From a virus: 64,000 nt of DNA. The translations under genes and the position numbers were made by a program. Position 1 is the first letter of the stretch, and every line of letters begins with the position of its first letter. Location of the stretch: the IMG/VR virus record IMGVR_UViG_3300043409_002109, positions 32,001-96,000 of that record. The stretch is one strand, 5' to 3'. Positions 435-44,413 of this stretch are shown here, piece by piece. The notes beneath the pieces were generated by a model. The model did no database searches. It saw only the letters and a program-made list of their open reading frames with translations, and had not been told where the DNA came from.

Positions 435-3400
435 ATGGCATTTGAATCTTATAATGCACAAGACATCTGGAGTTCTGGAGAAGCCCCCGGTAGCAGTAGT
501 AATCTACTAGCTGCTGGTAAGCTAGGCCTAGCGGCAGGGGCGGGGATAGGCGGGTTCCACTTATTGACTAAGAACCGCCCAGACGGCACTCGTGCTATCG
601 ATGACGTGTCTGCATTCCTGCGTACTGCTGGAAACCTTTCCCCATTCCAGATCGGGAATACCTTTCGTGTTCCTGAATTCCTATCCCCCTTCACTAGCCC
701 CTCCTATCAGGGCTTAAAAGGCGGGGAGCATGTATTTGAACAGAGCTTTCTGAAGACTTCTGAGACCACTCAGTACCTTCAGAAGGTCACAGGCAAAAGC
801 TATGAGGAGCTTCATGCTTTAGGCTTGAGCCAAGAGGCCCTCCTCGGCAGTGACGCTGCCGATAGTCTTGTCTACCGGGCAGGTAAGACTGGCTCTCGGG
901 GTAGTTTATTCGTAAGACGTAGAGGAGAGGAGTCTCTTCTCTCAGATGCTGTATCTCTCATGAGTAGAGATACAGAGATCGATCCTTTCGTCAGGGGAGC
1001 GAGGGCTGAGAATAAAGCATTTAAGGGCGTCCTTCAAGCCCTTGATATGTGGAAGAATGATAAGTTTGATTCAGAGAGAGTCTTAGCCTCGACAGACAAA
1101 CGATCTGAGGTCGCTTTCATCCCCTCTCTCGACGGACCTATGAAGACGAAGGGGGACTTCCTCCGACGCACTAGCTATGTTCGAGGAGTTGCGGCCTTCG
1201 AAGTCAGCAGATTCAATGACTTGATGGGCAATTATGCTCATCAGATATTTGGAGAAACTGGCGGGAACTTTACAAAGACTGTTCTAGGTATCTCCAACGA
1301 AGTTAGGCCAGGACCAGCAAGTGCCTTACTCGCAAGATATGCAGGTAGGGCGGCCATGCTCGGAGGGGCCGGGCTACTAGTTGCCCAAAGCGACTGGGTA
1401 CGCAGACAAGGGGGACTCCCAGGGCAGGCTGTGGCTGCTGCCGGGACCACTGCAGTGGGTGCATATGCCGCTTGGAAGATGGGGGCGAATAACAAGCTTG
1501 TAATGATGGGAGCCGTAGCAAGCTTCTTCGGGCAGATGACTTTACCCGGATTTGATAAGGGAATCTTCGAAGGAGTGGCTAGTACTGCTGCTGGACTAGA
1601 TGTTTTCAGAGCTAATCCCCTAAACCCATTTGGTTACTATCGTAGAACCTTAGAGGGATTTGCGCCCGGTATCTCTGATTGGAAGACTGGTGCTGTCTTA
1701 GGTCTCGGTGTTATGGCGGCTAGTGGCATGAGAATGCCCGGAACTGGTAAGAGAATTTCTGAACATCTTGTTGAGAAGCTAGGGGCAACAAGGCTCGGGC
1801 TGTCTTCTGGTGCTCTTGGCGTAGCGCCAGATGAACTACTCAGTACAAGAGATATGTTTTGGAGAGAACTAGAGGCTAGCAATAACCCCATAGCACGAAG
1901 CTCTGAAAGATGGCGCACCATGAGCGGGCGCCGGGAGATCTATGGGGAGCTAAAGGGCAGCCGCCCAGAAATACTTTCACAGATGAACAAGCACTGGCGT
2001 TCTGCCGAGGATGCGCATAGAGATATGATGCAGAAATCCTCTGAGCATGGAGCCAATAGGAAGTTGCTAGAAAGTCTCAGCGACATAGCTGATAAGTACA
2101 AGGATGGGAATGGCATTCAGAGGAAGATAATGATGCAAGTCGAAGGCTTTGCCTCTCAGACTTATCATTCTTTCTTCGGTGCTAATGCGAGCTATGACAA
2201 GGCCATGAGGTCTGAAATCCAGAAACTTGGATTTAGCGGAATCACTCCTGTGGGGAAATTCGGACGATTCGCTACACTTGGGCTGGCGGCTTTGGGCATT
2301 CAGCAGCTTGTGACTGGCGGGCTCCTTGGTTCTATGGAGTCTTCTGGAGATCTTAGCGACATCTATGCTGGACGTAAGCTAGTCGAAGTAAAGAAGAGCA
2401 GAGGGTGGGAGTCTGGCTCACAACCTTTTGGAGGTACTGAGACTTCATATTTCCGTCCTCATAGCTTGGCGTTGATGAATGCGCGCACTAGAGAAAGGGG
2501 TATCTGGGGGGAAGACGAGGATGAGATTTCTCCTATCACTAAGTTCTTCAAAAAGAACTTTACCTACGACCTAGAAAGGCAGAACTATTATGACAGGCCT
2601 TATCCTATATCCTCAGCCTTTGGTCAGGATGTCCCTATCATTGGCGGGCTGCTGGCGAGCACTGTTGGGCGAATCATCAAACCAGCTAAGTTAATGCACT
2701 CTGAAGAATGGGCAAGAGAAGGAGAAGGCGGGGCAGAGTTTAAGTCTATCTATAAAGGTAGTCGGCAAGAGCCAGCTTATGCTTTAGGAGCCCAAGGCCC
2801 TGGAACTCCAGTTAGTCCATTCGCTGCGACTGAACAAGCCATGTTTATGTCGGATCAGATGAGACAGCTCTCAGGCTTCCCGGGATTCATAAGAAATACG
2901 CTCCAGAAGATTGTTACTGGGAATCAGAATTTCATGCACAATCAGCCTGTGCTTGCTAGTTCTGGAGAGATGACTAGTCCGAGCAGAATGTTCTGGGAGA
3001 GCGAGCTTGGCGGCGGCTTCTTAACTACTGAGCTTTGGCGACGGCTATTCCCTAGAAATCAGCCGGGTTTACAGAAGGTGAACCCAATCCGAAACAATAT
3101 GCCTTACTGGATGCCAGATAAGTTCCATACTGGAGACCCCTACGCCTCGGTTCAATGGGGCGAAGCGAGACTTCCCGGAGCGGGGTACTCTGCGCTACAC
3201 CCTGAGCTTAATGGTATCGATCCAGAGGAATACCCTCTACTCGCTAGAATGGCGATCTTAGGGGATGTGGCGCCTGCCTCGGTTGAGTATAGGAGAACAC
3301 AAGAACAGGTTTATCTAAAGCGCCAAGAGGGAGGTTACTCCGAGGGCCAAAATAGACTTATTGATCAGATAGATCAACAAGTCGCTCAGCAGATGAACCA

Positions 3401-4472
3401 ATACACCTTTGAAGAACAAGATCCTAGATCTATCAATCTACCTGGAGCCGCTCCTGTTAGAGGGCTGTGGAATGGCGCTTTAACAGGTATCCGCCACCTT
3501 GCCGCGCCGGCTGAATACATGATTCCAATGGGTTTCAGACCTACTCAGAAGTTGATGTCTGACTATAGAGGCCCGATTGAGGCTTACGAACATGAGAGAT
3601 TGTATGGTACCCAAGTAGCTTTCTGGGATAAGCCCATGAGAGACTGGTTCAGACCAGCTGCTTACTCGGCGGCGCATATGATGGGTTATGATGGGAAGCC
3701 CCTTTGGAGAAGGGAAGCTGACGCAGTGGACCAGCGTTTCGATGAAATAGAATTCCATAAGTGGATGACCCTGGCCTTGCAAGCTGAGCAAGCAGGAGAC
3801 TCTGAGGGCAAGAGCCGGTATATGTGGGCAGCGTCAAATACCCGGACCGGTGTGAACCCCCAAGGCTCAGCTTTGAGCATGTACTGGACTCTTCCTGAAT
3901 CTGAAAGAAGTTTCTTCAACTCTTTCTCTGTAGCTCAAGGAGCGGATAGAAGCCGGATTCTAGAAATGGTCCCAGAGGACCAGGCCCATCTTTATCAGGC
4001 TTTATGGTCTAGGTTAGATAGCGGAGATCCCTCCGTTATGGCTGGAGGAGGACAGGGCGTCGATGAAAACTTCTTGCGCACCAAATATTATGGCCAGTCT
4101 AAAGAGGCTATGCCTTCAGAGGACTTCATTGGGTGGCACGAAGAAGTAGACCTCAGTGATATCAAAGTGCGCTATGCAGAACGCTATGCAGCTGATATCT
4201 CTGACTATGGAGTTTGGGAAAGCCAGCTGAAGAAATCAGAGGGACAAGAGTTCCTTGATGGCTCGGAGGGATATATAGGTTCGCCTAATACCATTGCGGC
4301 TCAGCAAATTAAAAGTAAAATATGGAATATGTCGGGCAGTACACAAAATAGACCTGGACTTACTTCGGTCTTTAGTTCTAATATGGGGTCTACAGTTCGT
4401 ATGACTTATAACGATCACAGAGATGGTGATATTTACAGTGTCTTCCAGAAGATGCTAAGCGGCGGCTATTAA
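435..4472 (+). CDS. tape-measure-like / ejected virion protein (1345 aa)
   Basis: AGAGGAG RBS. Gly/Ala-rich helical protein with several hydrophobic segments (GKLGLAAGAGIGGF, AAMLGGAGLLVA, FATLGLAALGIQQLVTGGLLG). Lies upstream of the hub and baseplate genes. Confidence 0.6.
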   Translation: MAFESYNAQDIWSSGEAPGSSSNLLAAGKLGLAAGAGIGGFHLLTKNRPDGTRAIDDVSAFLRTAGNLSPFQIGNTFRVPEFLSPFTSPSYQGLKGGEHVFEQSFLKTSETTQYLQKVTGKSYEELHALGLSQEALLGSDAADSLVYRAGKTGSRGSLFVRRRGEESLLSDAVSLMSRDTEIDPFVRGARAENKAFKGVLQALDMWKNDKFDSERVLASTDKRSEVAFIPSLDGPMKTKGDFLRRTSYVRGVAAFEVSRFNDLMGNYAHQIFGETGGNFTKTVLGISNEVRPGPASALLARYAGRAAMLGGAGLLVAQSDWVRRQGGLPGQAVAAAGTTAVGAYAAWKMGANNKLVMMGAVASFFGQMTLPGFDKGIFEGVASTAAGLDVFRANPLNPFGYYRRTLEGFAPGISDWKTGAVLGLGVMAASGMRMPGTGKRISEHLVEKLGATRLGLSSGALGVAPDELLSTRDMFWRELEASNNPIARSSERWRTMSGRREIYGELKGSRPEILSQMNKHWRSAEDAHRDMMQKSSEHGANRKLLESLSDIADKYKDGNGIQRKIMMQVEGFASQTYHSFFGANASYDKAMRSEIQKLGFSGITPVGKFGRFATLGLAALGIQQLVTGGLLGSMESSGDLSDIYAGRKLVEVKKSRGWESGSQPFGGTETSYFRPHSLALMNARTRERGIWGEDEDEISPITKFFKKNFTYDLERQNYYDRPYPISSAFGQDVPIIGGLLASTVGRIIKPAKLMHSEEWAREGEGGAEFKSIYKGSRQEPAYALGAQGPGTPVSPFAATEQAMFMSDQMRQLSGFPGFIRNTLQKIVTGNQNFMHNQPVLASSGEMTSPSRMFWESELGGGFLTTELWRRLFPRNQPGLQKVNPIRNNMPYWMPDKFHTGDPYASVQWGEARLPGAGYSALHPELNGIDPEEYPLLARMAILGDVAPASVEYRRTQEQVYLKRQEGGYSEGQNRLIDQIDQQVAQQMNQYTFEEQDPRSINLPGAAPVRGLWNGALTGIRHLAAPAEYMIPMGFRPTQKLMSDYRGPIEAYEHERLYGTQVAFWDKPMRDWFRPAAYSAAHMMGYDGKPLWRREADAVDQRFDEIEFHKWMTLALQAEQAGDSEGKSRYMWAASNTRTGVNPQGSALSMYWTLPESERSFFNSFSVAQGADRSRILEMVPEDQAHLYQALWSRLDSGDPSVMAGGGQGVDENFLRTKYYGQSKEAMPSEDFIGWHEEVDLSDIKVRYAERYAADISDYGVWESQLKKSEGQEFLDGSEGYIGSPNTIAAQQIKSKIWNMSGSTQNRPGLTSVFSSNMGSTVRMTYNDHRDGDIYSVFQKMLSGGY

Positions 4473-7400
4473 TGAATTTCTTGAGCAAGCTTAATGAAGA
4501 TAAAGATAAGGTCCCAGGCATTCTAGCTGGTGTTGCGGGTACGCTTCCTATTGCTTTAGCTGTAAATTATTCCTGGCGGAAAATGCAGTCTAATCAGCCT
4601 ATTTCCGCTTCCCAGATATTAGGTAATAGAAGCCCTCTTGGTGACATGGGCAGAGATATAGGGAAGGGCCTTCACGAGAGCTATGCTAAAGACAATAAGG
4701 CTGTAGATAAGATCACTGAGAAGCTCCTGAAAAGTGATGAGCTAGCCAAGATAATGGAGAAGAAGGACCAGCGGGCAGCGATTGTACAATCTATCTTGAC
4801 TACGATAGAAGATCAGAGCACTGGGCTGAATAGTGAAACTTTAGCGAAGACTAAAGAGCAACTAATGAAGATCGTCGCAGATGATGCGGACTCTCCAGAG
4901 GCTAGAGAGATTGTGAAGGCGGCTCTTACTAGTATTCAGGAAAGTGGTAGCGACCTAACACAACAGAGGTTCGCAAACCGTTTTAGAGAATTCAAGAAAC
5001 AGGGAGGTGGCCTTGTCGCTCCAGTAGCTGAGTTCAGAAGCACTCAGGCTCTGAATGTTATTAAACATGCTACGATGAAGGATCGTAGCGCTGTGCTTAA
5101 GCTCGTAGGAGGTGATGCTGGGCGTGCAGATTTCCTTCAAAGTCAGTACACCCGCATCGCTGATAGGGTTGGGAAGAAAGATCTAGAGACTGCTCTTCAG
5201 ATTGTAGAGATGGACAGTGGCATGGGACAACGAACTCTTATGGCTAGGGTCTATTCTGGAAAGAAAAAGCAATTTGCATTTCAAGTGAACCTCCTAGCAA
5301 ATGCTACTGGAGTTGATGCCCCCACTCTATACCCAATGGGAGAGAATGGGGCTACTAGGTATTTCGGCCCCGTAGGTGTTGTTGACGCAGGCGATGTTGA
5401 GAAACTGAATGCCACTCGAAAGAATAAGTGGGGACTAGAGCACCTCAGGGGTCGCTTAAAGAGGGTTGAGGCTCGCGAAATGGATATAGCCCTAAGCCTT
5501 TTAGAGAGTGACCAATTCGGTGTTCGCATGACTCAAGCGGCACGCACTGCATATAATGAGCAGCGGGCCGAGATTTTAGAGCCTGCTAGTCGTGTACTCT
5601 CTCCGGGCATGGAAAGGAGGAACAGGGGCAAGACCGCGGCTGCCTATCGCGAGCACCAGATGAGGCAGGCACGCATTACTCAGAATAAAATTGTTGTGAG
5701 TGGTCTTTTTGGTAAAGACGAAGCGGCAAAGGAAGCCTTGGCTAAAGGTGCCTTCTCTGTTGATCCCAGTGTGCTAGATAAGTTTGAGGCTGGGGAGACG
5801 AGAGTTTCCGCTCCCGTAGACGGCCGGCAGTACTTGAATCTTCAGCTTCAAAAAGACTCTGCCTTCACGGGATTCCGGGCCGGTGCTTCTGCTAATAGAA
5901 TATCTTTGCCTGTTATTGCCCGAATAGAGCAAGCTGTTGGTCGTAACGGTATGTACATATCAAGGGAGAGCGTCCCCCGGAAGATGGGAAGGCTCTCTAG
6001 GTATGACGTAGGGGCTGGCGGTGCGCCCATCGGTTGGCGAGAGCAGCACCAAGGGGGAGTTAACAGATTCGGCCTCTTCGATGCCACTGGCGGGCGCGGA
6101 AGAGGCTTCCTGGCTAAGAGCGAAGGCTCTGGTATGGCTTGGGCTCCCGGAGGTCTGGGAACATTAATGAATGACAGAACTATACCCATTCTAGATGCGA
6201 AAGAACACAACATGCTTACGACCGACTTTATGGCTCATCTTGAAGAAGAGTTTAAAGCTGGTAGAGAAATGAGTACTTATGACGTTATGGACAATGGTAA
6301 GCTAAGACATGCTACCACTGGACAGGAGTGGGATCGATGGTTAGGCCAGGGCTCAAGCGGAAATAGAGCTATCCACCTTGACCCTCAGACGAAGAGGTTC
6401 CAGATTGGCATTGCTGAGAAGAATGAGACTGGAGGCAAGAAGCAGATAAACCTAGCTATTGTGTCGGAAAGAAACATGGAGAGTGGAAAGGTCTTCGCTC
6501 CTGCCCTGAAAGCAACTCATGCTGTACCTGAACAAGGGTTCGAGGGTCGCCTAGCAAGAGACTACAAGTTAGGCACAGAGTTCTTCGCACGTCATGGTAT
6601 AAAGCTGACGGATACGATAGCTGCCTCTGGAGACCAGTACAAGAAGGCTCCTCTGTTTTTGGCAAGCCAACTTACGAGCGCTCTTGGAGCACTCGATAAC
6701 TCTGTTGATCCATTTGATTTTGTCGAAGACAGCGTTAAGGGTTATAAGGGGGACTCTCCTTTCGGAGGAAAAGATGTTGGTAAGGTAGCAGATATTGTGA
6801 TGGGTAGATTAGCCAAGGGGCATCGGGCTGGCCGGATTCATTCTCAGGATGTGGGGGCGGCGCTGGGCTTGCTCTATCAGGGCAGTGGATTAGCGAGACT
6901 GCACGACCCTAAAGGGGAGAATAGTGCCGATCCGTTGTGGCAGAGGGGAGGGAAGGAGAGCTATAAGCTTGATCCCGAGGCCCTAGAGAAGAGAATGATT
7001 CATCATTTTGGTGAAGATGCTTATAGGAATGAGCTTCTCCCACAGATGAAGACAGGACTTGCTATTCAGCCTTTGACTCTGTTTCCCGGTGAAGCCCATG
7101 GCGATTGGGGGCTCGGGAGAGGCTCGATAGAGCCACGTTTCTTGGAGTTAACCTCTGGGAAGCTAAGAGAAGCCGGTATGAATAATGCCGACGTTTCTGA
7201 GTTCATGGTAAGAGTGCTGAAGAGAAAAATTGGAGGAGAAGAGGGATTGAAGCTCGTCGCCCCCTTAGAACGGATGCAAGCTTCAGTTCTCAACAGGACT
7301 ATGCCCGGAGCAACCGGAGGTCCGACCTTTACTCTAGATCAGCTGATTGACGAGATGACAAAGCTAGGGCAGAAGACTAAAGGTAAAGGTAATTTTTCTG

Positions 7401-9688
7401 ATTTCCTCGCGACTCAGAAGGATGGCATTACTTTAGACCTGAGTGACACATCGAATAAAGCTAAAGCCGCGATCTCGCACGCCGCTGGAGAGCAGCTAGA
7501 GGGCCAGAGGTCTATCTACATGGCAGGTGGAGACGCTATGGAATTCATGAGAGGTACTGAGATTAAACAGGCTGCTGGTGAGTCTATTAAGATAGGCTCA
7601 GACTATGACAGGACAGTTAACCATTTTATTGAAGACCTTTTAAAAATGCGTACTAATGATGAGGAAGCGGCTAGATCTGCTTCCAAATCTATGCTTGAGT
7701 ATAGGAAGAATATAACTACTTTATTCTCAACTGCGTTGGTTGGCACCGCTAGAGGTAAAATAAAGGGTGCTTCATTCAGCGTAGCAGAAACATTGTTTGA
7801 TGACTTAGCTTTGACTCCTGAACAGTTCAAGTTAGCTGATCAACTTGATAGTGGTGCTAAAGGCCAAGCAGTCTTTAGAGATACTGCATCCTTCATGTCC
7901 TCCTTATCAGACTGGATGGGGAATGACAAAGGCAAGCTGGCTAGAATGTATTTTACTGGAGCAGAGAGAGCTGCAGCAACCGGCAAGATGAGTACTGGTA
8001 TATGGGGTCTGAGCACCAGAAACCCTCAGCTATTTAGACGTAGCACGAACATCACTCAAGCTTTCAGGGATCCTAGACAAGTGGCAAGAGGTGAGGCAGA
8101 CGTAGCATTCTCAAGAATCAAGAAGTATCTTCCTGGAGCTTTAGAGGAGTTGAGTAGGAAGACACAAACTGAGATAGGCGGATTCAAAGACATTGCTCTC
8201 CTAGACGATAAGGCCCATGGGAACGCTATAAATAGATTCTTCGATACTATCGCTGATCGACAGTCAGACTGGTGGCAGTCTGAGGGCGGTGGTACAGACT
8301 CGTATCTCAGAAGGGAACATGATGTCGTGATTACTGACAGTAAGGGTAATTCGCCAAAAACAATCAGGAAGGTAGACTTTGGTTTCCAAGGTGCAGCATA
8401 TCAGGACAATGACGGTGATCAGCCTCAGAATATGATTCTTGATGAAGAAGATCGAGTCAAACTCAACAAGGCATTTAAAGATAAGGAGCGAGCTGCAAAG
8501 TATTTTGCTACCGATTCACAAGGTATTGCTCAGCAGAAGATTGCTGACCACTACCTTAAGATAGGAATGGGCGGCGAGTCAGTTAGTCTCGACAGTGAGG
8601 CCCCTCCTGAGTTGCGTCAGATGAGTGAAGACTTCTTAAAGGAAAAAGCTCAAGATAGAAGTACTGGTAAGGTCAACAACGCAGTAGATAGGTTGCGTAG
8701 AGCTTTGCTTAATAATGTCGCAGGCAATGAAGATAACATCAACGAGGCAATGGCCTTTATCAACACCCTGCCAGAGCAGACTACTATCAAGTCAAAGCAG
8801 AGAACCAACTACGAAGCTCTAGCTGAAATGCTCTCTCGGGCTATTGGCGCTACGTATGATGGAGATAGCGATGCCTTACCTAATCTTTTCAAAACGACTC
8901 TATATCCTCAAGATAAGATGCCCGAGTTATATGAGGGCGTGAAGTACTCCATTCAAGGACGAAACCTGCCCAACAATGTGCAGGGTGCAGTCGGCGAAGT
9001 GAACCTAACAAGAGTTCTGGATACTATAATGCACTCAGTCCAAAACCATATTGCGATTGGTGGTGGAGAGATGGATACTCTTGGAGGCTTAACTCGGGGC
9101 CTGATGGGATCTCAGGCTGGTGTTAACTTCGATAGATATCTTGAGGGTAAGAGTGGAGTCCAGGCTGGTATTGCGGCCGGTGGAGGAAGAGGTGCCGCTC
9201 AGGATGCGGTGATTGCTGCCGAAGGTGCATTCGCAAGAGTCCGAGCAGCGGCAGGGAAAATAGACGGTAGGATGGCGGGAATAGCCACTCTAGGGCTTGG
9301 GGCAGGAGCAGCTATACTAGGCATGGCCGGGGCAGACGGGTATGACTCAGAGCCCCTAATGGCTCCTGGTGACATGCCAAGTTCTTATGTGCAGAAGGAG
9401 ATTAGCTCCTTTAACCTCCTTGATAATTCCTCTGCACGAGAGCAAGGTTCCCCTATGTCCGACCCCTATGATATGATGAACACACCTATTAATACTGGCA
9501 CCGCCTACATGAATAGACCAAATGGGTATAATATTCGTGGAGAAATTGGTAGTATGGGTGGAGTCGGTCAAGTAGGGGGTTATGTTAATAATCTAACTCG
9601 TGGTTTCGGACGAGGCTCTATTATGGTAAATGATACCAGACGACCGATAACCAGTTCCTACGTAGATCGAATGGCAGGAGAATACTAA
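4472..9688 (+). CDS. putative single-chain two-barrel (DPBB) DNA-dependent RNA polymerase, likely virion-associated (1738 aa)
   Basis: Ordered motifs: SEGSG (E551), GKVFAPALK (K673/K680), TRNPQLFRRS..TQAF (R1183), AAYQDNDGDQ (D1312-D1316), TGKVNN (~1398), EQTTIKSK (~1435). Compare beta' NRAPTLHRLGIQAF...AAYNADFDGDQ. Confidence 0.72.
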   Translation: MNFLSKLNEDKDKVPGILAGVAGTLPIALAVNYSWRKMQSNQPISASQILGNRSPLGDMGRDIGKGLHESYAKDNKAVDKITEKLLKSDELAKIMEKKDQRAAIVQSILTTIEDQSTGLNSETLAKTKEQLMKIVADDADSPEAREIVKAALTSIQESGSDLTQQRFANRFREFKKQGGGLVAPVAEFRSTQALNVIKHATMKDRSAVLKLVGGDAGRADFLQSQYTRIADRVGKKDLETALQIVEMDSGMGQRTLMARVYSGKKKQFAFQVNLLANATGVDAPTLYPMGENGATRYFGPVGVVDAGDVEKLNATRKNKWGLEHLRGRLKRVEAREMDIALSLLESDQFGVRMTQAARTAYNEQRAEILEPASRVLSPGMERRNRGKTAAAYREHQMRQARITQNKIVVSGLFGKDEAAKEALAKGAFSVDPSVLDKFEAGETRVSAPVDGRQYLNLQLQKDSAFTGFRAGASANRISLPVIARIEQAVGRNGMYISRESVPRKMGRLSRYDVGAGGAPIGWREQHQGGVNRFGLFDATGGRGRGFLAKSEGSGMAWAPGGLGTLMNDRTIPILDAKEHNMLTTDFMAHLEEEFKAGREMSTYDVMDNGKLRHATTGQEWDRWLGQGSSGNRAIHLDPQTKRFQIGIAEKNETGGKKQINLAIVSERNMESGKVFAPALKATHAVPEQGFEGRLARDYKLGTEFFARHGIKLTDTIAASGDQYKKAPLFLASQLTSALGALDNSVDPFDFVEDSVKGYKGDSPFGGKDVGKVADIVMGRLAKGHRAGRIHSQDVGAALGLLYQGSGLARLHDPKGENSADPLWQRGGKESYKLDPEALEKRMIHHFGEDAYRNELLPQMKTGLAIQPLTLFPGEAHGDWGLGRGSIEPRFLELTSGKLREAGMNNADVSEFMVRVLKRKIGGEEGLKLVAPLERMQASVLNRTMPGATGGPTFTLDQLIDEMTKLGQKTKGKGNFSDFLATQKDGITLDLSDTSNKAKAAISHAAGEQLEGQRSIYMAGGDAMEFMRGTEIKQAAGESIKIGSDYDRTVNHFIEDLLKMRTNDEEAARSASKSMLEYRKNITTLFSTALVGTARGKIKGASFSVAETLFDDLALTPEQFKLADQLDSGAKGQAVFRDTASFMSSLSDWMGNDKGKLARMYFTGAERAAATGKMSTGIWGLSTRNPQLFRRSTNITQAFRDPRQVARGEADVAFSRIKKYLPGALEELSRKTQTEIGGFKDIALLDDKAHGNAINRFFDTIADRQSDWWQSEGGGTDSYLRREHDVVITDSKGNSPKTIRKVDFGFQGAAYQDNDGDQPQNMILDEEDRVKLNKAFKDKERAAKYFATDSQGIAQQKIADHYLKIGMGGESVSLDSEAPPELRQMSEDFLKEKAQDRSTGKVNNAVDRLRRALLNNVAGNEDNINEAMAFINTLPEQTTIKSKQRTNYEALAEMLSRAIGATYDGDSDALPNLFKTTLYPQDKMPELYEGVKYSIQGRNLPNNVQGAVGEVNLTRVLDTIMHSVQNHIAIGGGEMDTLGGLTRGLMGSQAGVNFDRYLEGKSGVQAGIAAGGGRGAAQDAVIAAEGAFARVRAAAGKIDGRMAGIATLGLGAGAAILGMAGADGYDSEPLMAPGDMPSSYVQKEISSFNLLDNSSAREQGSPMSDPYDMMNTPINTGTAYMNRPNGYNIRGEIGSMGGVGQVGGYVNNLTRGFGRGSIMVNDTRRPITSSYVDRMAGEY

Positions 9689-9689: not shown

Positions 9690-12600
9690 TTGATTTCTGA
9701 TCTTGCGAGCCCCCTTACCGCACCTGACATTGATCTCGTTCAAAGAAAAGAGATCTTTGTTATAAATGATATTGCCTTAGTGGTTCCTCCCACTTCTATC
9801 TCTGTGCAGAAGGAGGATATGACTTACACCTGGCGCACGCTGCGTACCAGAACAAGTACGAAGGTTCCTACCGGGCATGGTAATATAAATGTCGGGCTTT
9901 CTTTGGTCTTCTTAGAAGATCGTATGTTCGACCTTCATCGTTTAATCGTCCAGTTACGCTCAAGCCCTTTCTGTTATGTTGAGAATCGTTATCTACGGGA
10001 AACTATTATCCCTGAGTTTAACCTCTATCAGGCTATGGCCTTCTGTGTAGATGCTATCCAGATATCTCCTTTACCGGGAACCTCTGATGCTTGGTTGTGT
10101 CAGCTCTCTTTGAGTTGGTTCAACTATCTCCCCTATACTGCTAACTTTATGTTCAGAGAAGATTGGGAAACAGAGTGGCTTGATAGCGGGGGCACTGGCG
10201 GAGGCCAGGCTATTAAGCAGAGCATAGGCTGGAAGTGGAATAAAGAAACTGGTAAGCGAGAGTTCACTCCATCAACTACCTCTCGACGCGAAGCTGAAGG
10301 AACGAATGTAAAGGAGTGGAACCTTCAGCAAGAGGGGTATGCGGATAAGGCCAATCGCACTCTGTTCGACATGGAAGCCTTGCACCTGGGGCAAGAGTTT
10401 GACATGCTTCCCTTGCCGGGAAATATGGCTCCCTCTCAGATAGCTTTAGACCCTCGTAATAGCAGAATCTATGTGCGCTATATTAACTTACTCCAGAGGG
10501 ATGCTCTTTGGGATAATTTTGAGATAGATATTGAGCGCTTGCTGACCGATGCGCAGATACCACTAGAAGGATTCTTCGGAGTTCACGAAGAGCCTGATGG
10601 GAGTAAGCAGACTTGGGGTCTGCATTCGGGACCTACCTCCTCGAATGAGGAGCACCGAAAGGCATGGTATGGAGTGATGAGAAAGGTTACAAGAGACATG
10701 CTTTCTTACAATGGCAAGATCTCTTTAGTCTTTCAGACCTACCAGACACTCGACATGCCTAATGAATGGAGCAAGGCTTTAGGTCGGCTCTCTGCTGTTG
10801 TCAGGAAGGAGTTTAACCCAGGCGCTAGCGAGACGAACCCGCTCTATCAAGGTGATTGGGTCACAATTCATAAGTATAGTAATAATATGACGCAGGCTAT
10901 CAGGAAGCATCCTAAGAGGACGGGACTTACCAATCCTAATGGCTTCAGATCTCCTCTTGGGGCGCCAGATAGAAGATTCAGTATTAATGAACTACGGAAC
11001 GGAGTCTCTTCACGGATATGTGAGAGAAGCCCCGAGAAAGATGTAGAGCTTGGGTACCCCCCCACGGGGAGGAACGAAGGCAGAGTTCACTGGGGAACGG
11101 ACTTCGGGACCGGTAAACAAGAAGGTTGGAAAGTTTACGCCTGTCGGCCTGGGAGAGTCACTGGTGTGAACTACGGATCCGTGGATGCCAGCAAAGTCGT
11201 GTGGAAATCTTTCCGTGAAACGGATGGGAAAATCTCCCAGATAGAGGGCGGCAAACTGTATGAGGCATGGCTAAGGACCATGACTGACGCCCTCGGAGCT
11301 TCTTCTGTAGCGAAGAGCAAGAAGGTCGTGTCCCTTGCCGGTACTGCTCTCCAGCAGTACCAGAAGTTCGGGACTATAATCCAAGATGTGACTTATCCAG
11401 AGATCTACTATTTCACAGACTTAACGAGTGAAGGTGGAAACTGGATTCGAATAGAGCATAACACTGGAGGCGAGCCAGGTGTCGGGAGTTGTGATGGCGA
11501 CATCTCGGTGTATATGCATCTTCGAGAAATATTCGTAAAGGTCGGAGATATCATAGGTGGCGCGGAGGGGAACCCAGGACATGATATCGATCAACCAATT
11601 GGCATTGTAGGGCAAACTTCTACCCTTAGTCCGAAGTATATAGATTGGTTCGTAAAGAATAAGACTCGTGGCGCCCAAAGGGGTGGGCCGGCCGCCGGCC
11701 GCCACGCAGACTGGGAGAAGGGAAAGTTCCAGCAGCTAAAACCTTTTGAGTATCAAGAGATTGTCTCTGAGTTGCGGCAGTCTGGGATTCCAGATCGTAA
11801 GAATAAAGGCGGATTCACACTCCCTATCCACCTCCACTTTGAGTACTGGGAGAAGGAAGGCAACGGTGCTCCGCTTGATCGATCTGTAGATCCTTATGTG
11901 TTCAAGGATTTCTCGAACACTCCAATGGTCAAGGAAGGCTATGTAATGGTTGACCCAGTTCCTTCCTTCGAGGCCGGGTCTCAGGGTATGGAGGGTAAGG
12001 AGAACTACGTCCTCTGGATAGACAATACAGCCGCTATTGCGAAGATCTCTGCCGCTATCGTAGCCAAGGAGATAAAGAAGGATAACGGAGAGAGCTATGA
12101 GGTAGATACGGCGAAGCTCGAAGATATGATAGAGAAGATGGAGGAGCTATCTAGTCAAGGATGGTACCATTACGAGGGGGCTATGAAGCTCCCTAACGTC
12201 TGGTATAAAACTTGGATTCTCAACTACCGACATGGAAACAAAGACGAGCTTAGAGACCCTAACGTTCTCCAGAACTTTTTTAATAGCACTGATAGTGCCT
12301 ATACAGATCTGAGCACAGTTTTCACTGGGGTAAGTGGCGGGTTTACGAACATTGTTGCGCGCATTCCCATCCTCTCATATGAGTACCCGACTCTTCAGCA
12401 TCTTGGTTCTATAGAGCCTCACTACACTTTTGAGTTTACCCTATTGGATGATCGGTTTGACGAAGAGGGCGGCAAGGGTCTCCACGGTATACCTTCTAGT
12501 GGCCAGCTCTTAGAGGGTATGAGAAGTATACTCCAGAGAAATGCCCGTAAATACAGGGAAGTCAAAGATAGTTGGAGCTTAGCTACAGATACTTTTATGA

Positions 12601-15600
12601 CTAGGTTACTTGGTTCTTTCCGGGTGAGAGATGCCATCTTCAATAACACTACAACAGGTGTTGTCAATCAGGTAACTTTATTGAAGAGAACGATTATAGA
12701 ACGCTCTGACAATGGGACTGTAGAAGGTAGCCCAGGGCTGTCCTATCTATCCTTCGAGATGAGCGAGACGAACCCCTATGATGAAGAAGAATTTGTTAAT
12801 ATCAACCCTGCATTCTTTGACGTAGAGACTGCGAGGAAGGAGGCTCTGCAGGCTCTCTATAAGCTAGATATCGCTGGAGAGTTCAAGGACAGTGTTCTGC
12901 CTATTCTTATCGGGAGTCTGGCGAACAGAAATATTCTAGATCCCAATAACGAGGAGGGGTATGGCCAGTTTAGCGTTGATAGCACTAGTGATTTAGCCTA
13001 TGCCCTAGGAGGGAGCCAGAAAGTTATACTTTATCGGGGTGATGATCCCGAATTTAAAAAGGGTTTAGGCTTTCAGGACAGCTTCGTTATCCAAGATCCA
13101 GGCGGGGTCTACGAGAGGCTGCTGCGTAATGAGTTAGAAGGAGACTTCGATAAAAGTGTTACTATTAGAAATGGCTTGCTTCTCGTAAACGCTAATGAAG
13201 GAGACTACGGGGAGCCAGAGTTTTCGACCCCGTATATCGCTGAAGACTACGGAACTTTTGACGAGGGCGCCGTTTCAAACGAAACGAGGAAGCCTAGAGC
13301 TTCCTTCGATATCTCCCGGATATTAGAGTCTTCATCAGATCTCGCTCAGCTTTCTAAGTTGAACTTGCCTAAAATCGCTGACTATTGGCAGCTTCTAGAT
13401 GCAGTGCTTAAGAGTGCAGAGATATCTCTGGCTGAGGAAAAAACTCTTGTCAGTCCCAGGAGTTCGCTCTCCTACCAGACGGGAGGACTTAGCAAGGAAA
13501 GGGTACAGGCAGAGCTTTATGATCTTCCGGTAACGCCCTCCATGTGGAGACTTTGGCAGTATTACCAGATAGCTGCAGGGGCAAAGTGGATCGTAACCGC
13601 GAACAAAGTTCCTAGTGCTGGCTGGAAAACTGATATTCTCCTAGGTCCCGTTGAAAAAATGTTCTTCGCTTCTGTTACGCAAGAGAATGAATTTGATGCG
13701 ACTGGTGAGGCAGCTTTTACTGTATTGAAGAGTAACGCGGGTTGGCTTACTTGGAGCGAAGTAACGTCGGAGGCTCTTTCTCCTGAATTACTTAAGAAAG
13801 CTACTGATACACATCTTTCTTTTGGTACAGACATCTTAACCTTCGGTGGGATTGGCTTGGATAGCTTGGGCGTTGGTGCGACTCTTATTATCGATCAGGG
13901 TCGTGATGGTTGGGCTCAGGTAACTGGGGCGAAGAAAGCAGAGGATACCAAGTGGATGGGGACCTTTCTCCGAGGCGGCACTTTGGCAGCAGAAGAGAAG
14001 CTCACTGAGATATACCTTCGGCATATGTATCCTAGCAATGCCGTCTGGCTGACTGACCTCGCTAAATATTATGCGAAAGATACTCTTTTCTCTCCTATTG
14101 TTGCATTGATTAATGGGAATGAGGGGCCTCTCGCCTCGGTCCATGCCCAGCTGCAAGAGAACTTGCACAGCTGCGGGTATTGGAGCTTTGGTTTTTCAGA
14201 CAGTGCGATAGGGAAAGCTTTCGGGGCTGGGTACCCCCGCTTTACTGTGCGCAAGGAGGATTTCAAAACAACTGCCGATGGCCTCCTCTACTACGATAAT
14301 ACTTCAGGAGAGAGAACTCCATCAGGAGTTTCGGGCATAAAAGATTATGACTCTAGCTTTATCTGGCCTGTCTCTGAAGATGTTGAAATAAAGAAGCTAA
14401 GAGAATTTAAAAGCGCCCTCGCACGTCTCGCCGATGACATACTCTCTGATCCAAAGATTCTAACTGCTTTAGGTTTACAGAGATATATAAACATATTGGC
14501 GTCTCAAAAGACTATCAAGGGTACAGAGTGTTATCCTGATTTACAACTTCCTGAGCATCCTTATTACGGCGATACGAAGGATGTCTCTCCAGATTTTTAC
14601 TTCTGGAATATGTATGATGACGGACAGGCTTTTGCCCCAGAAGTTATCGAACGTATTCGGACTTCAGCCGATCACATTGTATCCAACTGTTATGAGTCAC
14701 TTCGGGTGATGCAGGGCCGGAATGATAAGGCTAATGAAATGCCTTATACAAATACTAGTATCTCTGATCAACAGATTATTACTCCATTCAGATATAATGC
14801 TGAAGCTACTGACGGTAATAGTCCCAACCCATCCAATGTCGGGCCTACTGATATCCCTTGGTATGAAAATGATGCAGCAGCAGATGCTGTAGCGAAGTTC
14901 AATGGAACTATAAAAACTGCTGGGGAGAAAAGCATTAAGGATGCCAATCAGGTTAGCGCGACTCCTCGGAGAGCGTTAAAGGTGAACAAGGCGGAAATTT
15001 CTGCTATCAACCCACCCTCTGCTTCTATGTCGGTTACCGAGGGGCAGATAGATACTGGAGATAGCAAGAACTTTAAGGGTGGCTTGCATTACCCTATGCG
15101 AGTGACCCCCGAGAAGTACACAGAACTGAGGAACCACCTTCTCTCTTCGCGGCCGATGTTTGGTAACAAAGCAGCTTACTTAGGAAAGCAATTCGAAGAG
15201 AATGCCCCTGCTCCAGAGGTAGCTCAAGTTCGGGGAACAGCGCTCCAGACGCCCCTTCAGTACACGCATTTATTCGATGAATCTTCCCTAAAACAGCTTG
15301 CTTTCGACTCTAGTAGAGATATCGTTTCTCAGAAAGTAACTATGAGGAGAGCATTCCCGACCTTCAAGCTCTTCTTTATTGAAGAAGATGAAATCGAAGA
15401 TCATCTTATCGCATATGATGATTTCCATTCTTATAATGCTGTGAAAGAATTCTCAGTAGTCCAAAGCCGCAAGATTGCGGCCGACGTAGCGATCATCACT
15501 CTACAGAACGTTTCGGGTACGCTAGATGCTACCCGCAGAGATGCTATTGCTGACGTTGACTACTTCACGAAGAAGCCTAAGAGCAAAGATAAGAACCAAA

Positions 15601-18600
15601 GCACCACCAGCGGAGAGGCCGTAGCCGAGGGCACTGATAATGAGCAGCCTTTCCAGGCTGTGCTCCTACGTCCTGGTATGAACATACAGCTTCGTAGCGG
15701 TTATAGTAACGACCCCAGAAATCTTCATGTAATGATTTCTGGTAGAGTAGTGGACATAACTTGGAATAAAGTCGGGGATATGGCCGAGATAATGGTCCAG
15801 GGATTTGGCGTTGAACTCCAGCAAGCCTACAAGGGCACAGAAGGGGATGGAACCATCTACTACACCACCCATCATCTGCTCGGAGCGATGATGCTACAGC
15901 CTGAACTAGTCCATTTTGGGAGGTGGGAACGTGGACAATTATTCCAAGAGGGAGAGTCTCAAGACTCTAGGTTGGACTTCTATGATTATTCTAGAGAAGG
16001 ATTCATGGGAAGATTCTCTATGACGACAGCGATCACTTCTTGGCTAGCGGCGCATCCTATTATTACTATTGTAGGTATGCTCGGTCTCGGTGCTCTGAAC
16101 CTATATACCCCGGGCGCAGGGAAGCTCACTGCTGGAGCAGCAAAACCCGGGTTTCTTTCTAGAGTCTTTAGCTCTTTAGCTAGAGTAGGAGAGAAGCCTA
16201 CGGTCCTTAAGGCGACAGAATATGCCACGACAGGAGCTTTTAGAAAGATTCTTCCTGAAGCGATTGAAGCAGAGCTAAAGACAGCCGGTGGGTGGAAAGG
16301 ACTAAGTGATGCTTCTAAAATCGCTGTGGTCAAACTGATATTGGGAAAGCAAAGAGAAGCCTACCGACTTCTGAAGTCAACTTCGAGCTGGACCCTAGCC
16401 CATAGCAAGGAGGCTACTCGTTTAAGAAAGATAACTCATGAAGCTATCGCAAAAGCAGAGACTATTGAAGATGTTCTGGCAGCAGGAGCCTCCCATGTGA
16501 GAGGCTTGAATTACACTCTCCTAAAGGGAGGTATGTTAGGGAACCCAGCCTACTCGCTACTCACTAGCCCTCTTGGCTTCTTGGGTTGGCACCAGGTGAA
16601 AACCATGAGTTCATTTGGAATAAGGTCTTATTTAGTCGGTACTGGAAAGGTCGCTGGAGGAGCATTACTAACCGGTTTAGTATTGGATGCTCTTGGGGTA
16701 CCTATTCGAGCGGCTTATGACGCAACTGCCGGCAGAATCCAAAGATGGTTCTCGACTGCTCAAGTCTCTCTAATGATCAGCCCTCAAGATGACAACTTAT
16801 TCTGTCCTCACCCTAAAGACTATATGGATATGTCAGAAAAGAGCTATACACAGGTATTTGAAGAGTGGCTTACAGTTAGTGCCGGAGATCTTGTTGCCGG
16901 CACTAACCAAGGTTATAAGTTCTCTAGGTGGCTTCACTTGGAGACGATCTTTGATAAGAGAGTCCTTCCTCAGTCTTGTCAGTATCAAATAGATACTTCT
17001 ACTATCTGGGATATTTTCCATGAGATGTCTTTACGTCATCCTGGCTGGATCTATGGGGTACGGCCCTACGGCCATGCATTCAGGAATACGATGTTCTTCG
17101 GCGTTCCCAGTCAGCGCTATTGGTCAAAGCCTGCAAGTAATGAATTCATCCAGCGTGTTAACACCCTCAGCAGATTTCTTGCGAATGACGAAATAGATGA
17201 AACAGAATATGAATTGTTATACGGTGATAATATAGATGGGAAAACTATAGCCGAGTATAAAGAACAACTCACCTTCTCTGCTAGGCTTAAGCTTCAGACT
17301 CACTCTTCTGAATCCCCGCCAGTAGGGGTCGTCTATGGTCCGCAGACTAAAGCTGAAGCAGAGCTGAATCCCCCACCAGCCTACGACCCTAGAGTAGAGA
17401 AGGAAGTTCAAGCCCAATTAAAGGCGCGACTATCGGCCCCGGCCATCAAGGAGTACCTACGAGGTCTTGAGTTAAGGTTCGTCCCTTTCCGGAATCACCA
17501 TATGGTGAGTAGTACTCGTGATCTCATTTGGAATGGGATAATGAGTAGTGAAAATGCAGCTTATAATGCTGTGTCTGTAACTTATTTTGATGAGACTTCA
17601 GGAGCGAGCAAGTCTTCAGAGACTACGACAGAGATATTCAAGGCTCATTCATTTATACCTGAGCATATGGTTCGAGTTCTACCCCTCCCGGTATATAGGA
17701 ATTGTATTAGCTATCCAATGGCTATTAGATACGCCATGGGAACGCTAATGGATACAATGAAAGATATGTACCGGGGTGAGATTATTGTTACTGGGAACCC
17801 TAGACTGCGGCCCTATGATATCTGCATTCTTACTGATGACTATAACGATATGGTTGGTCCAATAGAAATAGAGCAGGTTGTTCATACTTTCTCTCATGAG
17901 ACTGGGTTCATTACAGAAATTAAGCCTTCAGCAGTTGTCATAGCAAACGAGATTAGTTCGTGGCCTCTGATAGAGGCGGCTAAGCTTTGGACCTTAGCGG
18001 TAAGAGATATAGAAGCTAAGTACGCAATAGGGCCAGGTCAAACTGGCCTGATGGGAGATATTGCCAGTGTGTTGGCTTCGACTCTCAGTGAAGCTGATTC
18101 AAAAACTTTAGAGAAGAAATATCAAACTATGTATGGTGGTGAGATACCATTCATACAAGACCTGGCTGAAGATAAGGCTCTCTCTGAATCGCTAGAAGCT
18201 TGGGATAAAGATATCGCTCTTGCTGTTGCTGGAATGAGAACGGCGAGCGTTGGGATCCTTGGAGGTACTGCCGCTGCTGCGGCGCTGGTAGGAGCCGGAA
18301 TAGCTGCGAGAGTGCCTGGTGGGAGGATCCTAGGTTCAATTGGTCTTCTTGGCGCGGTACCTCTCGCCCTCACTGCCGGAGCTTTACACATTGCCCTGCA
18401 GACTCCTCCGAGCTTGAAGATGCTCATAGGTGGGACTGTACTCTTCGCCCAGATGGCAAGAGAAGAATCTATTATTCTTGTTCCTTTGATGAAGAATGGG
18501 CAGCCCATTGTCTCTGGATTGAATATCCAAGATCCTTCTATGATGTGGACCCACTTCAAGGGGAACTTGAGGCGTATGGTGTCAGACATAACTGAGGGCA

Positions 18601-29975: not shown

Positions 29976-30430
29976 GCATTCAGGATTTAGAATTTGAGAT
30001 TGTATCTTCAGGCGATACTATTTATGACCCGCTTACGCTAGTTTCTAGTGTGGTGATGGAACTAAGAGTAACGAATATGGGAGACGAGGACTTAACTGAT
30101 CTTGGCTTCTATCTCGTCCCCTCAACCGATATCGGAGATGTGGATAATCCCTCTGAGGTTCCTGCCGAAACAGATTTCCAGGATGTTCTTTCTTGGGGGC
30201 AGGCGGTCTTTCTTGGAGAGGAAGTCGCTGGTGGAATAAAGATAACCTGTGATCCTGACGGAAGCGGCGATGAAACCACCTACTTCACTCGTGCCGCTGG
30301 TGCCTCAGGCGCAACCAAGATCCCACTTTTAGATTTAGATAGTGGAGATAATGCTCTCTTCTCTCTTGAGTTAGAGACTCCCCCAGGCGTTCCTTCTCGC
30401 AGGCTCTACGTAGACTTAGTTTTGGAGTAA
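29972..30430 (+). CDS. small Ig-like structural protein
   Basis: ATGA overlap; LRVTNMGDEDLTDL beta-sandwich pattern. Confidence 0.45.
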   Translation: MSIQDLEFEIVSSGDTIYDPLTLVSSVVMELRVTNMGDEDLTDLGFYLVPSTDIGDVDNPSEVPAETDFQDVLSWGQAVFLGEEVAGGIKITCDPDGSGDETTYFTRAAGASGATKIPLLDLDSGDNALFSLELETPPGVPSRRLYVDLVLE

Positions 30431-30433
30431 AGA

Positions 30434-37490: not shown

Positions 37491-37499
37491 GTGATATAA

Positions 37500-38990: not shown

Positions 38991-39755
38991 GTGTACAATT
39001 ATCTTCTGGGTAACCCTGAGGCTAATTGTCTTGTAGTTAAGAGAGGAGGAGGTCTGGGAGATTCTCTGATGTTAGAGTTCTCTATCGGCTTTCTCAGGCA
39101 GCAGTTTCCAGAGGCTAAGGTAACTGTAGCCTATGGTACGGAGAAAGAGGCCGCCTACTTCAGCGGGAGTCTTGCTGATTACCTGGACCCCAGAGATTTT
39201 GATAAAGTGGTTGACGTTAGCTCTTGCTCTGTGGCTTATGAGCGGCCGGGCTCCCTCATCAAGAACAGAATAGACATCTATAAGAATAGATTGTCGTGCC
39301 CTGGGATTCTTTATCCGCAGCTGAAGCAGAAAGAAACTGCTTGCCCCTCTGAATTTATCACTGTGCACTGTACTTCTGAAGATCCTAATCGCTCTTGGCC
39401 ATTATCTAATGTGGTTAATCTTAGCAAGGTCTTTTCTGACGAGCGGTTCAAAGTTCTGGATACGGGGTACTCTCTTGAAGAGGCCGCGTATTTGATAAAT
39501 AAATCTAAACTTTTTATTGGTGTCGATTCCCTGTTCATGCATATGGCTGGGATACTAGGGCGTCGCGCCATAGTACTCTTTGGACCTTCTGTTCCTTCTT
39601 CAAGGCTTGCATATTACCCTACCCATACACCTCTATATGATCCTTCCTGTCGGCATTGTTGGCATCAAGAATGCTTGCTAAAAAGAAGCTGTATGAATAG
39701 AATCCCTTTAGATACCGTTAGTGCTCAGCTTGAAAAGATTCTTGCTGAGATTTAA
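38991..39755 (+). CDS. glycosyltransferase family 9 (heptosyltransferase-like)
   Basis: GGLGDSL, RSWP, LFIGVDSLFMHMAGILGRRAIVLFGPS and C-terminal CxxC..C..C. Confidence 0.85.
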   Translation: MYNYLLGNPEANCLVVKRGGGLGDSLMLEFSIGFLRQQFPEAKVTVAYGTEKEAAYFSGSLADYLDPRDFDKVVDVSSCSVAYERPGSLIKNRIDIYKNRLSCPGILYPQLKQKETACPSEFITVHCTSEDPNRSWPLSNVVNLSKVFSDERFKVLDTGYSLEEAAYLINKSKLFIGVDSLFMHMAGILGRRAIVLFGPSVPSSRLAYYPTHTPLYDPSCRHCWHQECLLKRSCMNRIPLDTVSAQLEKILAEI

Positions 39756-39773
39756 TTATCTTAAGGAGTTTTT

Positions 39774-40229: not shown

Positions 40230-40457
40230 ATGGCAGTTACTGATAGTCAATACGCTTCTCTTCTATCTCGACTTACGAAGATAGAACGTGTTATGAATGA
40301 CCTAATCACTGCTCAAGGCAATCTCGTGTCAGCATTACAGGTCAATGAAGTATTCACTGTGCTTCAGCAAGAGATGGATTCACTTAGTTCTGATGTGGAG
40401 GCTCTAACTAGTCGAGTGGAGACCATCGAGAATGAGCCTTACGATGAGAATGGGTAG
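40230..40457 (+). CDS. small coiled-coil protein
   Basis: Abuts the upstream stop; heptad repeat LSSDVEALTSRVETIE. Confidence 0.5.
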   Translation: MAVTDSQYASLLSRLTKIERVMNDLITAQGNLVSALQVNEVFTVLQQEMDSLSSDVEALTSRVETIENEPYDENG

Positions 40458-40462
40458 GGCGG

Positions 40463-40495
40463 AAAAAGAGAAGGGCGCCGTGAGGCGCCCTTTAG
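40463..40495. terminator. intrinsic terminator between convergent operons (probably bidirectional)
   Basis: Hairpin AAGGGCGCC-GTGA-GGCGCCCTT (40471-40492). U-rich tail TTCTCTTTTT on the - strand and TTT on the + strand. Confidence 0.8.
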
Positions 40496-44412: not shown

Positions 44413-44413
44413 T

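Follow-up and report, generated by a model that had tools for sequence, protein, structure and literature searches.

Virion-delivered single-chain two-barrel RNA polymerases (RNAPs) have been described, in the literature searched here, in crAss-like phages and in one lineage of Thermus siphoviruses. The Thermus phage P23-45 enzyme occupies the N-terminal part of gp96, a 5002-amino-acid (aa) tape measure protein (TMP) that also contains membrane segments and a metallopeptidase; virions contain gp96, which transcribes the pre-early genes (PMC10770324). The same literature search returned no description of single-chain two-barrel polymerases in the tail modules of myoviruses. Here, we analyze a window of 64,000 nucleotides that spans bases 32001–96000 of IMG/VR virus record IMGVR_UViG_3300043409_002109 (150,205 bp, complete according to CheckV). 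An earlier inspection of this window (the sequence-only reading) had proposed that one of its open reading frames (ORFs), here called P0001, encodes a very divergent single-chain two-barrel RNAP lying among the tail genes. We consider it probable that P0001 is a cellular-type two-barrel RNAP that is carried in the virion, injected, and used to transcribe the first genes to enter the cell. Models of the core predict, with high confidence, a fold of the two-barrel polymerase type whose catalytic set is intact and strongly conserved. We infer that this enzyme synthesizes RNA on a DNA template, and the position of its gene, its hydrophobic segments and the precedent of P23-45 point to delivery by the virion.

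P0001 belongs to a large family of long proteins with a nearly fixed set of residues. A word-indexed search found only seven relatives, at 22–45% identity, among which the key residues were already invariant. An exhaustive HMMER profile search with residues 470–1500 against 1.84 billion representatives raised the family to 162 cluster representatives (148 at E ≤ 1e-10 and 125 at E ≤ 1e-30), with clusters defined at 50% identity. Nearly all are 1,650–1,830 aa long, and they originate from groundwater, marine, and other metagenomes. Conservation was counted across the 109 members that reach 1300 aa, aligned with MAFFT; the mean identity per column is ∼13%. A lone DxDGD string is not improbable by chance (∼0.6 expected per 46,000 aa by our own estimate) and is weak evidence; conservation was therefore made the test. 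All seven motifs listed in the sequence-only reading are present at the positions it gave, and the residues it placed at the catalytic center are conserved in the homologues. The aspartates D1312, D1314, and D1316 are each found in 109 of 109 members, most commonly as GDFDGD, and the GKVFAPALK lysines K673 and K680 in 105 and 104, respectively. Column 1315 is glycine in 85 members and alanine in 21. At the RxP motif, P1185 is invariant (109/109), R1183 is present in 108 members and R1199 in 104. Likewise, G1095 of RGKIKG occurs in 101 members and G1399 in 106, with aspartic acid at position 1402 in 90; within EQTTIKSK, E1435 and K1442 each occur in 108 and K1440 in 102. Conserved residues beyond those noticed earlier are R484 (98%), Q487 (99%), E887 (92%), R889 (99%), D1721 (100%), R1723 (97%), and P1725 (92%); R484, Q487, and R491 are also invariant in an eight-sequence alignment. 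The C-terminal domain is more conserved than the catalytic core.

Three details of the sequence-only reading do not hold. SEGSG had been compared with a metal-B motif in which E551 would be the ligand. This column varies (L in 39, E in 18, and A in 12 of 109 members) and only G554 is conserved there; the metal-B assignment is rejected because E551 is unconserved. The DNDGD center had been called unusual, and its second position varies freely in the family (phenylalanine in 49 of 109). Finally, the special insert of ∼110 aa proposed between the RxP motif and DxDGD is not borne out; the spacing in P0001, 129 aa, resembles that in cellular beta', where it is ∼110 aa.

Structure predictions place these residues in a polymerase core. 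We used AlphaFold models covering residues 470–1500, the better of which was built without templates from a 52-sequence alignment (predicted local distance difference test (pLDDT) 89.2, predicted template modeling score (pTM) 0.87). It supersedes a first model from eight sequences (pLDDT 66), in which K673 and K680 fell in a low-confidence loop. Even the first model ranked two-barrel polymerases at the top: ZmRDR2 (Z 9.0), QDE-1 (8.8), P74-26 gp62 (7.4), African swine fever virus RNAP (6.8), and phi14:2 gp66 (6.6). With the better model, the best 21 rows of an exhaustive VIA structural search over 48,161 PDB chains are all RNA polymerases. In that search the beta-like half (model residues 1–414, protein residues 470–883) matches vaccinia Rpo132 with Z 11.0 over 271 aligned residues, and further matches include Pol I, Pol III, Pol IV, plastid and bacterial beta, and the beta-like subunits of phages AR9 and phiKZ. 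Rescoring of Foldseek candidates gave 195 chains at Z ≥ 8, of which the best 50 are all Rpb2-type, over a region equivalent to ∼705–1060 of human Rpb2. The highest scores are those of vaccinia Rpo132 (6ric_B, residues 671–1043, Z 11.5, 269 aligned, root-mean-square deviation (rmsd) 4.6) and human Rpb2 705–1060 (Z 11.4); bacterial beta (6j9e_C), AR9 (7s00_C), and phiKZ (7ogp_C) score 8.7, 8.4, and 8.0, respectively. The beta'-like half (model residues 471–1019, protein residues 940–1488) matches human Pol I A190 (7ob9_A, Z 7.6, 350 aligned), Drosophila Rpb1 (7.5), archaeal A' (7.4), and Mycobacterium tuberculosis beta' (6.7), and matches to Rpb1-type chains extend to model residues 1010–1020. 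The second barrel taken alone (model residues 630–855) matches isolated double-psi beta-barrel (DPBB) domains, both designed ones and VAT-N, at Z 5–5.6.

The whole core also matches enzymes that carry both barrels on one chain: QDE-1 (7y7p_A, Z 9.6, 420 aligned, rmsd 8.8), ZmRDR2 (7w84_A, Z 9.2, 337 aligned, rmsd 4.0), P74-26 gp62 (Z 8.6, 304 aligned, rmsd 4.2), and P23-45 gp96 (Z 6.8, 332 aligned over both barrels, rmsd 4.7). A Foldseek search of the PDB returned RNAP large subunits of both classes in 48 of the 50 rows listed, each with an E-value of only 0.02–0.15; neither model gave a PDB match at E ≤ 0.001, and only the composition of this hit list is informative. The top ESM Atlas match is a single-chain bacterial cluster of 1006 aa with Rpb2_6, Rpb1_2, and Rpb2_3 domains (TM 0.42/0.43), which aligns 536 residues over query positions 1–947 and so covers both halves. 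It is followed by viral Rpb1-like proteins and baculovirus LEF-9. With each half matching its own subunit and the whole core matching single-chain enzymes, the models support the proposal of a divergent single-chain two-barrel RNAP.

Within the model, K673 and K680 lie on neighboring strands (model residues 203–207 and 210–215) of the first barrel, inside the region that matches Rpb2 and beta. R1183 and P1185 sit at a strand-turn-strand, and the aspartate triad occupies a loop that connects a helix to a second-barrel strand. The sequence-only reading had staked its case on a pair of such barrels that join DNDGD with the two lysines and R1183, and on aspartates kept in homologues, as they prove to be. 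In the predicted structure, K673 and K680 belong to the beta-like half and R1183, P1185, and DNDGD to the beta'-like half. The alignments across both halves, with the single-chain enzymes and with the ESM Atlas cluster, are consistent with barrels that face each other around one active site. Barrel A, with the invariant DxDxD triad, gives its DPBB match inside the beta'/Rpb1 match, and barrel B, with the two conserved lysines, falls in the Rpb2-like region that scores Z 11.4–11.5. G1399 is part of a 35-residue helix (model residues 910–944) that is a bridge-helix candidate; the family consensus here, GxLDV, in our view resembles GLADTAL of beta'. E1435, K1440, and K1442 follow this helix in short helices (model residues 964–974), where EQTTIKSK is a trigger-loop candidate.

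The best whole-core single-chain matches, QDE-1 and RDR2, would also suit a two-barrel enzyme with a different substrate, whether an RNA-dependent RNA polymerase (RdRP) of the QDE-1/RDR2 kind, a replication primase, or a DNA polymerase resembling archaeal PolD. So would the loss of the asparagine of beta' NADFDGD, a residue that touches the ribose of the nucleoside triphosphate. Nonetheless, each half of P0001 best matches DNA-dependent polymerases (Z up to 11.5), no PolD chain is among the matches listed, and the phage encodes its own DNA polymerase and primase-helicase. We know of no need that a double-stranded DNA phage would have for an RdRP. Moreover, QDE-1 accepts DNA templates too (PMC9508822). 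We regard a different substrate as very unlikely.

The setting of the gene argues for a role in the virion. P0001 stands between two other giant genes that run in the same direction. The terminase and portal genes precede this trio in the genome, as do a gene for a tail sheath of 778 aa (phrog_16991, E 1e-41) and, after it, genes for three small tube-like paralogues; baseplate genes of the gp25-like and gp6-like kinds lie 3′ of the giants. Because sheath, tube-like, and baseplate genes flank the giants, the virus is contractile-tailed and the polymerase gene is part of the tail module, as the sequence-only reading had it. The reading frame it delimited is open over its full length, and the translational coupling it described is present as a 1-nucleotide stop/start overlap (TAATG) at 4470–4474. 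The downstream giant begins at a TTG codon with AGGAG 9 nucleotides before it. The three-giant block has the same order and similar sizes in all seven related contigs retrieved, and in these the upstream giant is always 5′ of the polymerase gene. The wider arrangement, from sheath and tube-like genes through the giants to the baseplate genes, is likewise conserved in them. The three tube-like paralogues (218, 265, and 232 aa; genome 28643–30922; L010:10643-12919) match phrog_9206, which carries the label 'major head protein'; directly after the sheath, they stand where tube proteins would be expected.

The two giant neighbors are informative to different degrees. The upstream giant has no Pfam or PHROG match, and its designation as the tape measure in the sequence-only reading is not supported. 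Its N-terminus is visibly rich in Gly and Ala and hydrophobic, though under the Kyte-Doolittle window threshold applied. The downstream giant matches phrog_20474 'endolysin' (E 1e-49) and, weakly, Peptidase_M23, which is also recorded on its homologues. The M23-like region lies at ∼580–622, the endolysin-like region at 2572–2750, and five hydrophobic segments between 1382 and 2898. By position this giant is the apparent equivalent of an enlarged baseplate hub, and a counterpart in Acinetobacter phage vB_AbaM_ME3 (ME3) is annotated as baseplate hub. In one related contig (L006:4719-10001) the upstream giant has 1760 aa instead of ∼1345 and a weak LAGLIDADG_3 match, which suggests an intein or a homing-endonuclease insertion.

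An active two-barrel polymerase might also have come to lie among tail genes through operon organization only, and serve in middle or late intracellular transcription or in some other task without entering the virion. Non-virion single-chain relatives do exist (P23-45 gp64 and YonO), and the genome has no other recognizable phage polymerase whose launch would depend on an enzyme from the virion. However, translational coupling ties the gene into a conserved structural block between the sheath and tube genes and the baseplate genes, and the counterpart block in Bacillus phage vB_BceM_WH1 (WH1) is annotated as virion structural proteins. In addition, both ends of the protein are hydrophobic and its C-terminal domain exceeds the core in conservation, traits that typify ejected tail proteins rather than cytoplasmic enzymes. 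We therefore consider a purely intracellular polymerase unlikely.

Conversely, the protein could be mainly a structural component of the tail, either a tape measure or an ejected channel-former, descended from a polymerase and no longer polymerizing. Hardies et al. assigned the same slot in phage 0305phi8-36 to the tape measure (PMC2147016), and this position, the hydrophobic segments, and the conserved C-terminus would all fit such a protein. Yet residues 470–1500 are predicted to form a compact globular core instead of an extended ruler, and P0001 matches no TMP family in Pfam or PHROG. A dead enzyme, moreover, would not keep the triad in 109 of 109 members and the lysines, the RxP motif, and the trigger-like E and K residues at 95–100% in a family with ∼13% identity. 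This makes a structural protein that has lost its activity highly improbable.

How would a virion-borne P0001 act? The polymerase would be made late, alongside the tail proteins, and would enter the virion or its tail together with its two giant neighbors. Contraction of the sheath would expel it, and the segments at residues 13–31 and 1601–1619 would insert into the cytoplasmic membrane. The conserved C-terminal domain would remain at the tail tip, and the polymerase core would face the cytoplasm at the site of DNA entry. The first genes to enter could then be transcribed without the host polymerase. The host enzyme would take over later transcription, because the genome has no other recognizable phage polymerase: no second polymerase was found by PF00940 or PF00623 matches across the whole 150-kb genome, and no ORF of at least 250 aa other than an AAA ATPase contains another DxD[GAST]D string. 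A hydrophobic stretch comparable to residues 13–31 is visible at the N-terminus of the homologues inspected.

Across the related contigs, a Gly/Ala-rich hydrophobic N-terminus is common to the polymerase and the upstream giant, as is a C-terminus of the pattern ...ND.R(D/R)...Y....G(G/E)Y. Their C-termini resemble each other in a colinear but weak manner (hhalign E 0.0045, probability 8%). These shared terminal features may be a common assembly or docking signal.

Several observations weigh against a virion-delivered RNAP. P0001 has no Pfam match at E ≤ 0.1, and none to PF00623 (RNA_pol_Rpb1_2), PF00562 (RNA_pol_Rpb2_6), PF05183 (RdRP), or PF00940 (T7-like) in particular, nor does it have a PHROG match. 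A phmmer search against PDB sequences returned nothing relevant, and a profile of 121 family sequences retrieved only designed helical proteins from the same set. Aligned by hhalign with residues 1–1200 of P23-45 gp96, the 52-sequence profile gave only an irrelevant 27-column match (probability 0.4, E 0.14). The structural scores are individually moderate (Z 7–11.5), and the asparagine that precedes DFDGD in beta' is unconserved, position 1310 being I, F, G, or Y. It is also not obvious how a folded core of ∼110 kDa would pass the tail tube. Finally, no exact 10- to 14-mers were shared as promoter-like words by the required 3–5 regions (the number depending on word length) among 50 intergenic regions. 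When two mismatches are allowed, the sole recurring words in these regions are an AT-rich one and a GC hairpin resembling a terminator.

Negative sequence searches agree with the literature on two-barrel polymerases, whose families have no significant sequence similarity outside the DxDxD region (PMC10770324). Likewise, tblastn of P0001 against 50,697 phage records found no match, and language-model Atlas look-ups with P0001 and the upstream giant (0.78–0.81) were uninformative. The strings GDFDGD and RRPIT are absent from the supplements of PMC10770324, a study that catalogues 23 families. By sequence criteria, P0001 belongs to no described family.

GC-rich hairpins occur in six near-identical copies, GGGGCGCC-TAT-GGCGCCCC, often followed by TTTCGCTTTG, on the minus strand at genome positions 116790–136295, beyond the window (L012:3790, 5993, 7062, 12718; L013:5009, 5295). 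At least four lie directly between minus-strand genes, and two share a single long stretch of non-coding DNA. They resemble terminators but may instead be processing or polymerase recognition sites.

Similar blocks are found in cultured phages. A Foldseek search of predicted viral structures matched the core to a 'minor tail protein' of an uncultured phage (E 3e-8, 1085 columns) and to two proteins of ME3 (E 3.7e-7 and 1.7e-6). The better of these, ME3_36 (E 3.7e-7), is a 1603-aa protein annotated as hypothetical that has a GDHDQD sequence around residue 1221. Flanked by ME3_35 ('virion structural protein') and ME3_37 ('baseplate hub protein'), it is the middle gene of a three-giant block directly after the sheath (record 29381–44988; L036:9382-24989). 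A search of the ME3 genome with the family profile found nothing, and strict DxDGD occurs in ME3 only in two small unrelated annotated coding sequences. The second match, ME3_309 (798 aa, L018:9454-11850; 714 columns, E 1.7e-6), carries a KAVTKGK lysine motif and no DxDxD, and the genes around it are small and of early type. ME3_309 could be a non-virion partner or a subunit of the beta-like kind.

The annotators of ME3 tied the neighbors in this block to Bacillus phage 0305phi8-36. The middle gene of that phage, orf146, was called a tape measure on grounds of tail length, and conservation in it is confined to the last 60 residues; the gene after it encodes an enlarged gp27-type hub with wall-degrading domains (PMC2147016). 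WH1 is a 0305phi8-36-like phage, and its three annotated virion structural proteins are giants as well. The middle giant, WH1 gp095 (2515 aa, L037:3007-10554), contains NRYPT at 1958 and ADHDGD at 1996 and ends in ...VNDN...FTY. This hints, as a lead only, that the so-called tape measure gene of the 0305phi8-36/WH1 lineage also holds a polymerase barrel; hhalign shows no similarity, with probabilities below 1% for the family profiles against both ME3_36 and WH1 gp095.

We tentatively extend these observations to a broader conjecture, which we hold to be possible but rather doubtful. Large contractile-tailed phages of a very broad group, taking in the P0001 family, ME3, and perhaps Bacillus phages like 0305phi8-36, would encode a membrane-tethered RNAP in the middle of their three-giant block, and not, or not only, a tape measure; this enzyme would couple genome entry to the first transcription. 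The hydrophobic segments would lie in the membrane, the C-terminal domain would dock on the tail tip, and the enzyme would stand at the DNA exit port. If so, tail-delivered cell-type polymerases would be a common myovirus strategy and not a curiosity of Thermus phages. Confirmation would mean that, in many large myoviruses, genes now listed as 'hypothetical' or 'tape measure' need reannotation. Because ME3 has a structurally matching gene in the same position and is a cultured phage, the hypothesis can be tested at the bench. Phage-borne polymerases decide whether a phage depends on host transcription machinery at entry, and they are new minimal enzymes for work on the structure and evolution of cellular RNAPs and their origin.

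The coordinates of the polymerase gene, its features, and its two large neighbors are collected in Table 1. Other genes of the genome include a Pol III alpha-type PHP/NTPase fragment (a separate 419-aa ORF), a nicotinamide phosphoribosyltransferase, an RNA-ligase-like protein, and an RlaP-type nucleotidyltransferase (L011:3551-4807, L012:12754-14247, L012:17367-18770, and L013:11652-12803).

Table 1. Features of P0001 and its neighboring giant genes, with positions numbered from the first base of the window.
Feature	Protein residues	Window positions	Strand	Basis or remark
Upstream giant gene, conserved partner of the polymerase gene		435..4472	+	1345 aa
P0001, candidate single-chain two-barrel RNA polymerase gene		4472..9688	+	Open frame, 1738 aa
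N-terminal Gly/Ala-rich hydrophobic segment	13–31	4508..4564	+	Kyte-Doolittle window 1.64
N-terminal region	32–469	4565..5878	+	Alignable across family; no family or fold assigned
beta/Rpb2-like module with first barrel (DPBB-B)	470–883	5879..7120	+	Structural matches
PVIARIEQAVGR, R484 and Q487 nearly invariant		5909..5944	+	Conservation; role presumed only
SEGSG	550–554			Motif check
GKVFAPALK, conserved K673/K680	672–680	6485..6511	+	Adjacent strands, first barrel
EPRF, E887 and R889, end of beta-like module		7130..7141	+	Conservation; role presumed only
beta'/Rpb1-like module: clamp-like helical part, second barrel (DPBB-A), long helices	940–1488	7289..8935	+	
RGKIKG	1094–1099			Motif check
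STRNPQLFRRSTNITQAF, RxP motif, counterpart of beta' NRAPTLH	1181–1198	8012..8065	+	Conservation
DNDGD, predicted catalytic metal-binding triad D1312/D1314/D1316	Within AAYQDNDGDQ, 1308–1317	8405..8419	+	Conservation
35-residue helix, bridge-helix candidate	1379–1413 (TGKVNN at 1398–1403)	8606..8710	+	Model
EQTTIKSK, trigger-loop-like	1435–1442	8774..8797	+	Conservation, model
C-terminal Gly/Ala-rich hydrophobic segment	1601–1619	9272..9328	+	Kyte-Doolittle window 1.70; conserved in alignment
Highly conserved C-terminal domain, end ...VNDTRRPITSSYVDRMAGEY		9329..9685	+	D1721, R1723, P1725
Downstream giant gene, baseplate-hub position		9690..18734	+	3014 aa

The P0001 family is invisible to sequence searches and belongs to contractile-tailed phages of ∼150 kb, with a stand-alone polymerase bounded by hydrophobic segments, a separate peptidase gene, and a possible clamp-like part. 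P23-45 gp96 (PDB 8H2M/8H2N; Chaban et al. 2024) has many of the same ingredients. Both proteins have a single-chain two-barrel core with a DxDGD triad, a gene in the tail module, membrane segments, and a metallopeptidase nearby, and neither is similar in sequence to annotated polymerases. In contrast to the long non-contractile tail of P23-45, the tail here is contractile, and the ingredients that gp96 combines are spread over adjacent genes. P0001 is a separate protein that ends at residue 1738, and the peptidase-like region is in the downstream 3014-aa ORF. The two have no detectable sequence relation (hhalign probability 0.4). In addition, the helical part at the start of the beta'-like half of P0001 aligns to the cellular clamp region, albeit weakly (Z 6.7), whereas gp96 lacks a clamp, and the halves of P0001 match cellular subunits better than they match gp96.

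Enzymes of the QDE-1, RDR2, and YonO type share with P0001 the order of the lysine barrel and the aspartate barrel on one chain. P0001 differs from them in its length (about twice theirs), its hydrophobic termini, its tail-gene context, and the lack of a PF05183 match, and its beta-like half matches Rpb2-type subunits better than QDE-1 or RDR2 (Z 11.5). Multisubunit RNAPs give the highest structural scores and have the motifs that those of P0001 resemble (GDK..NKG, NRAPTLH, and NADFDGD). Unlike them, P0001 is one chain without most peripheral domains and without an Rpb1 or Rpb2 Pfam match, and both its lysine spacing and its AAY-DxDGD spacing are one residue shorter.

The crAss-like phage enzyme phi14:2 gp66 (PDB 6VR4) is likewise a single-chain two-barrel polymerase with giant neighbors, which in its case are other virion proteins. 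It is packaged in the virion of a short-tailed virus. gp66 scored Z 6.6 with the first model and is not among the best 50 rows for the better one, and we know of no sequence relation between it and the P0001 family. By analogy, P0001 may thus resemble gp96 and gp66 in function, while its predicted halves are structurally nearest to the subunits of cellular RNAPs and of nucleocytoplasmic large DNA viruses and to fused beta-beta' proteins.

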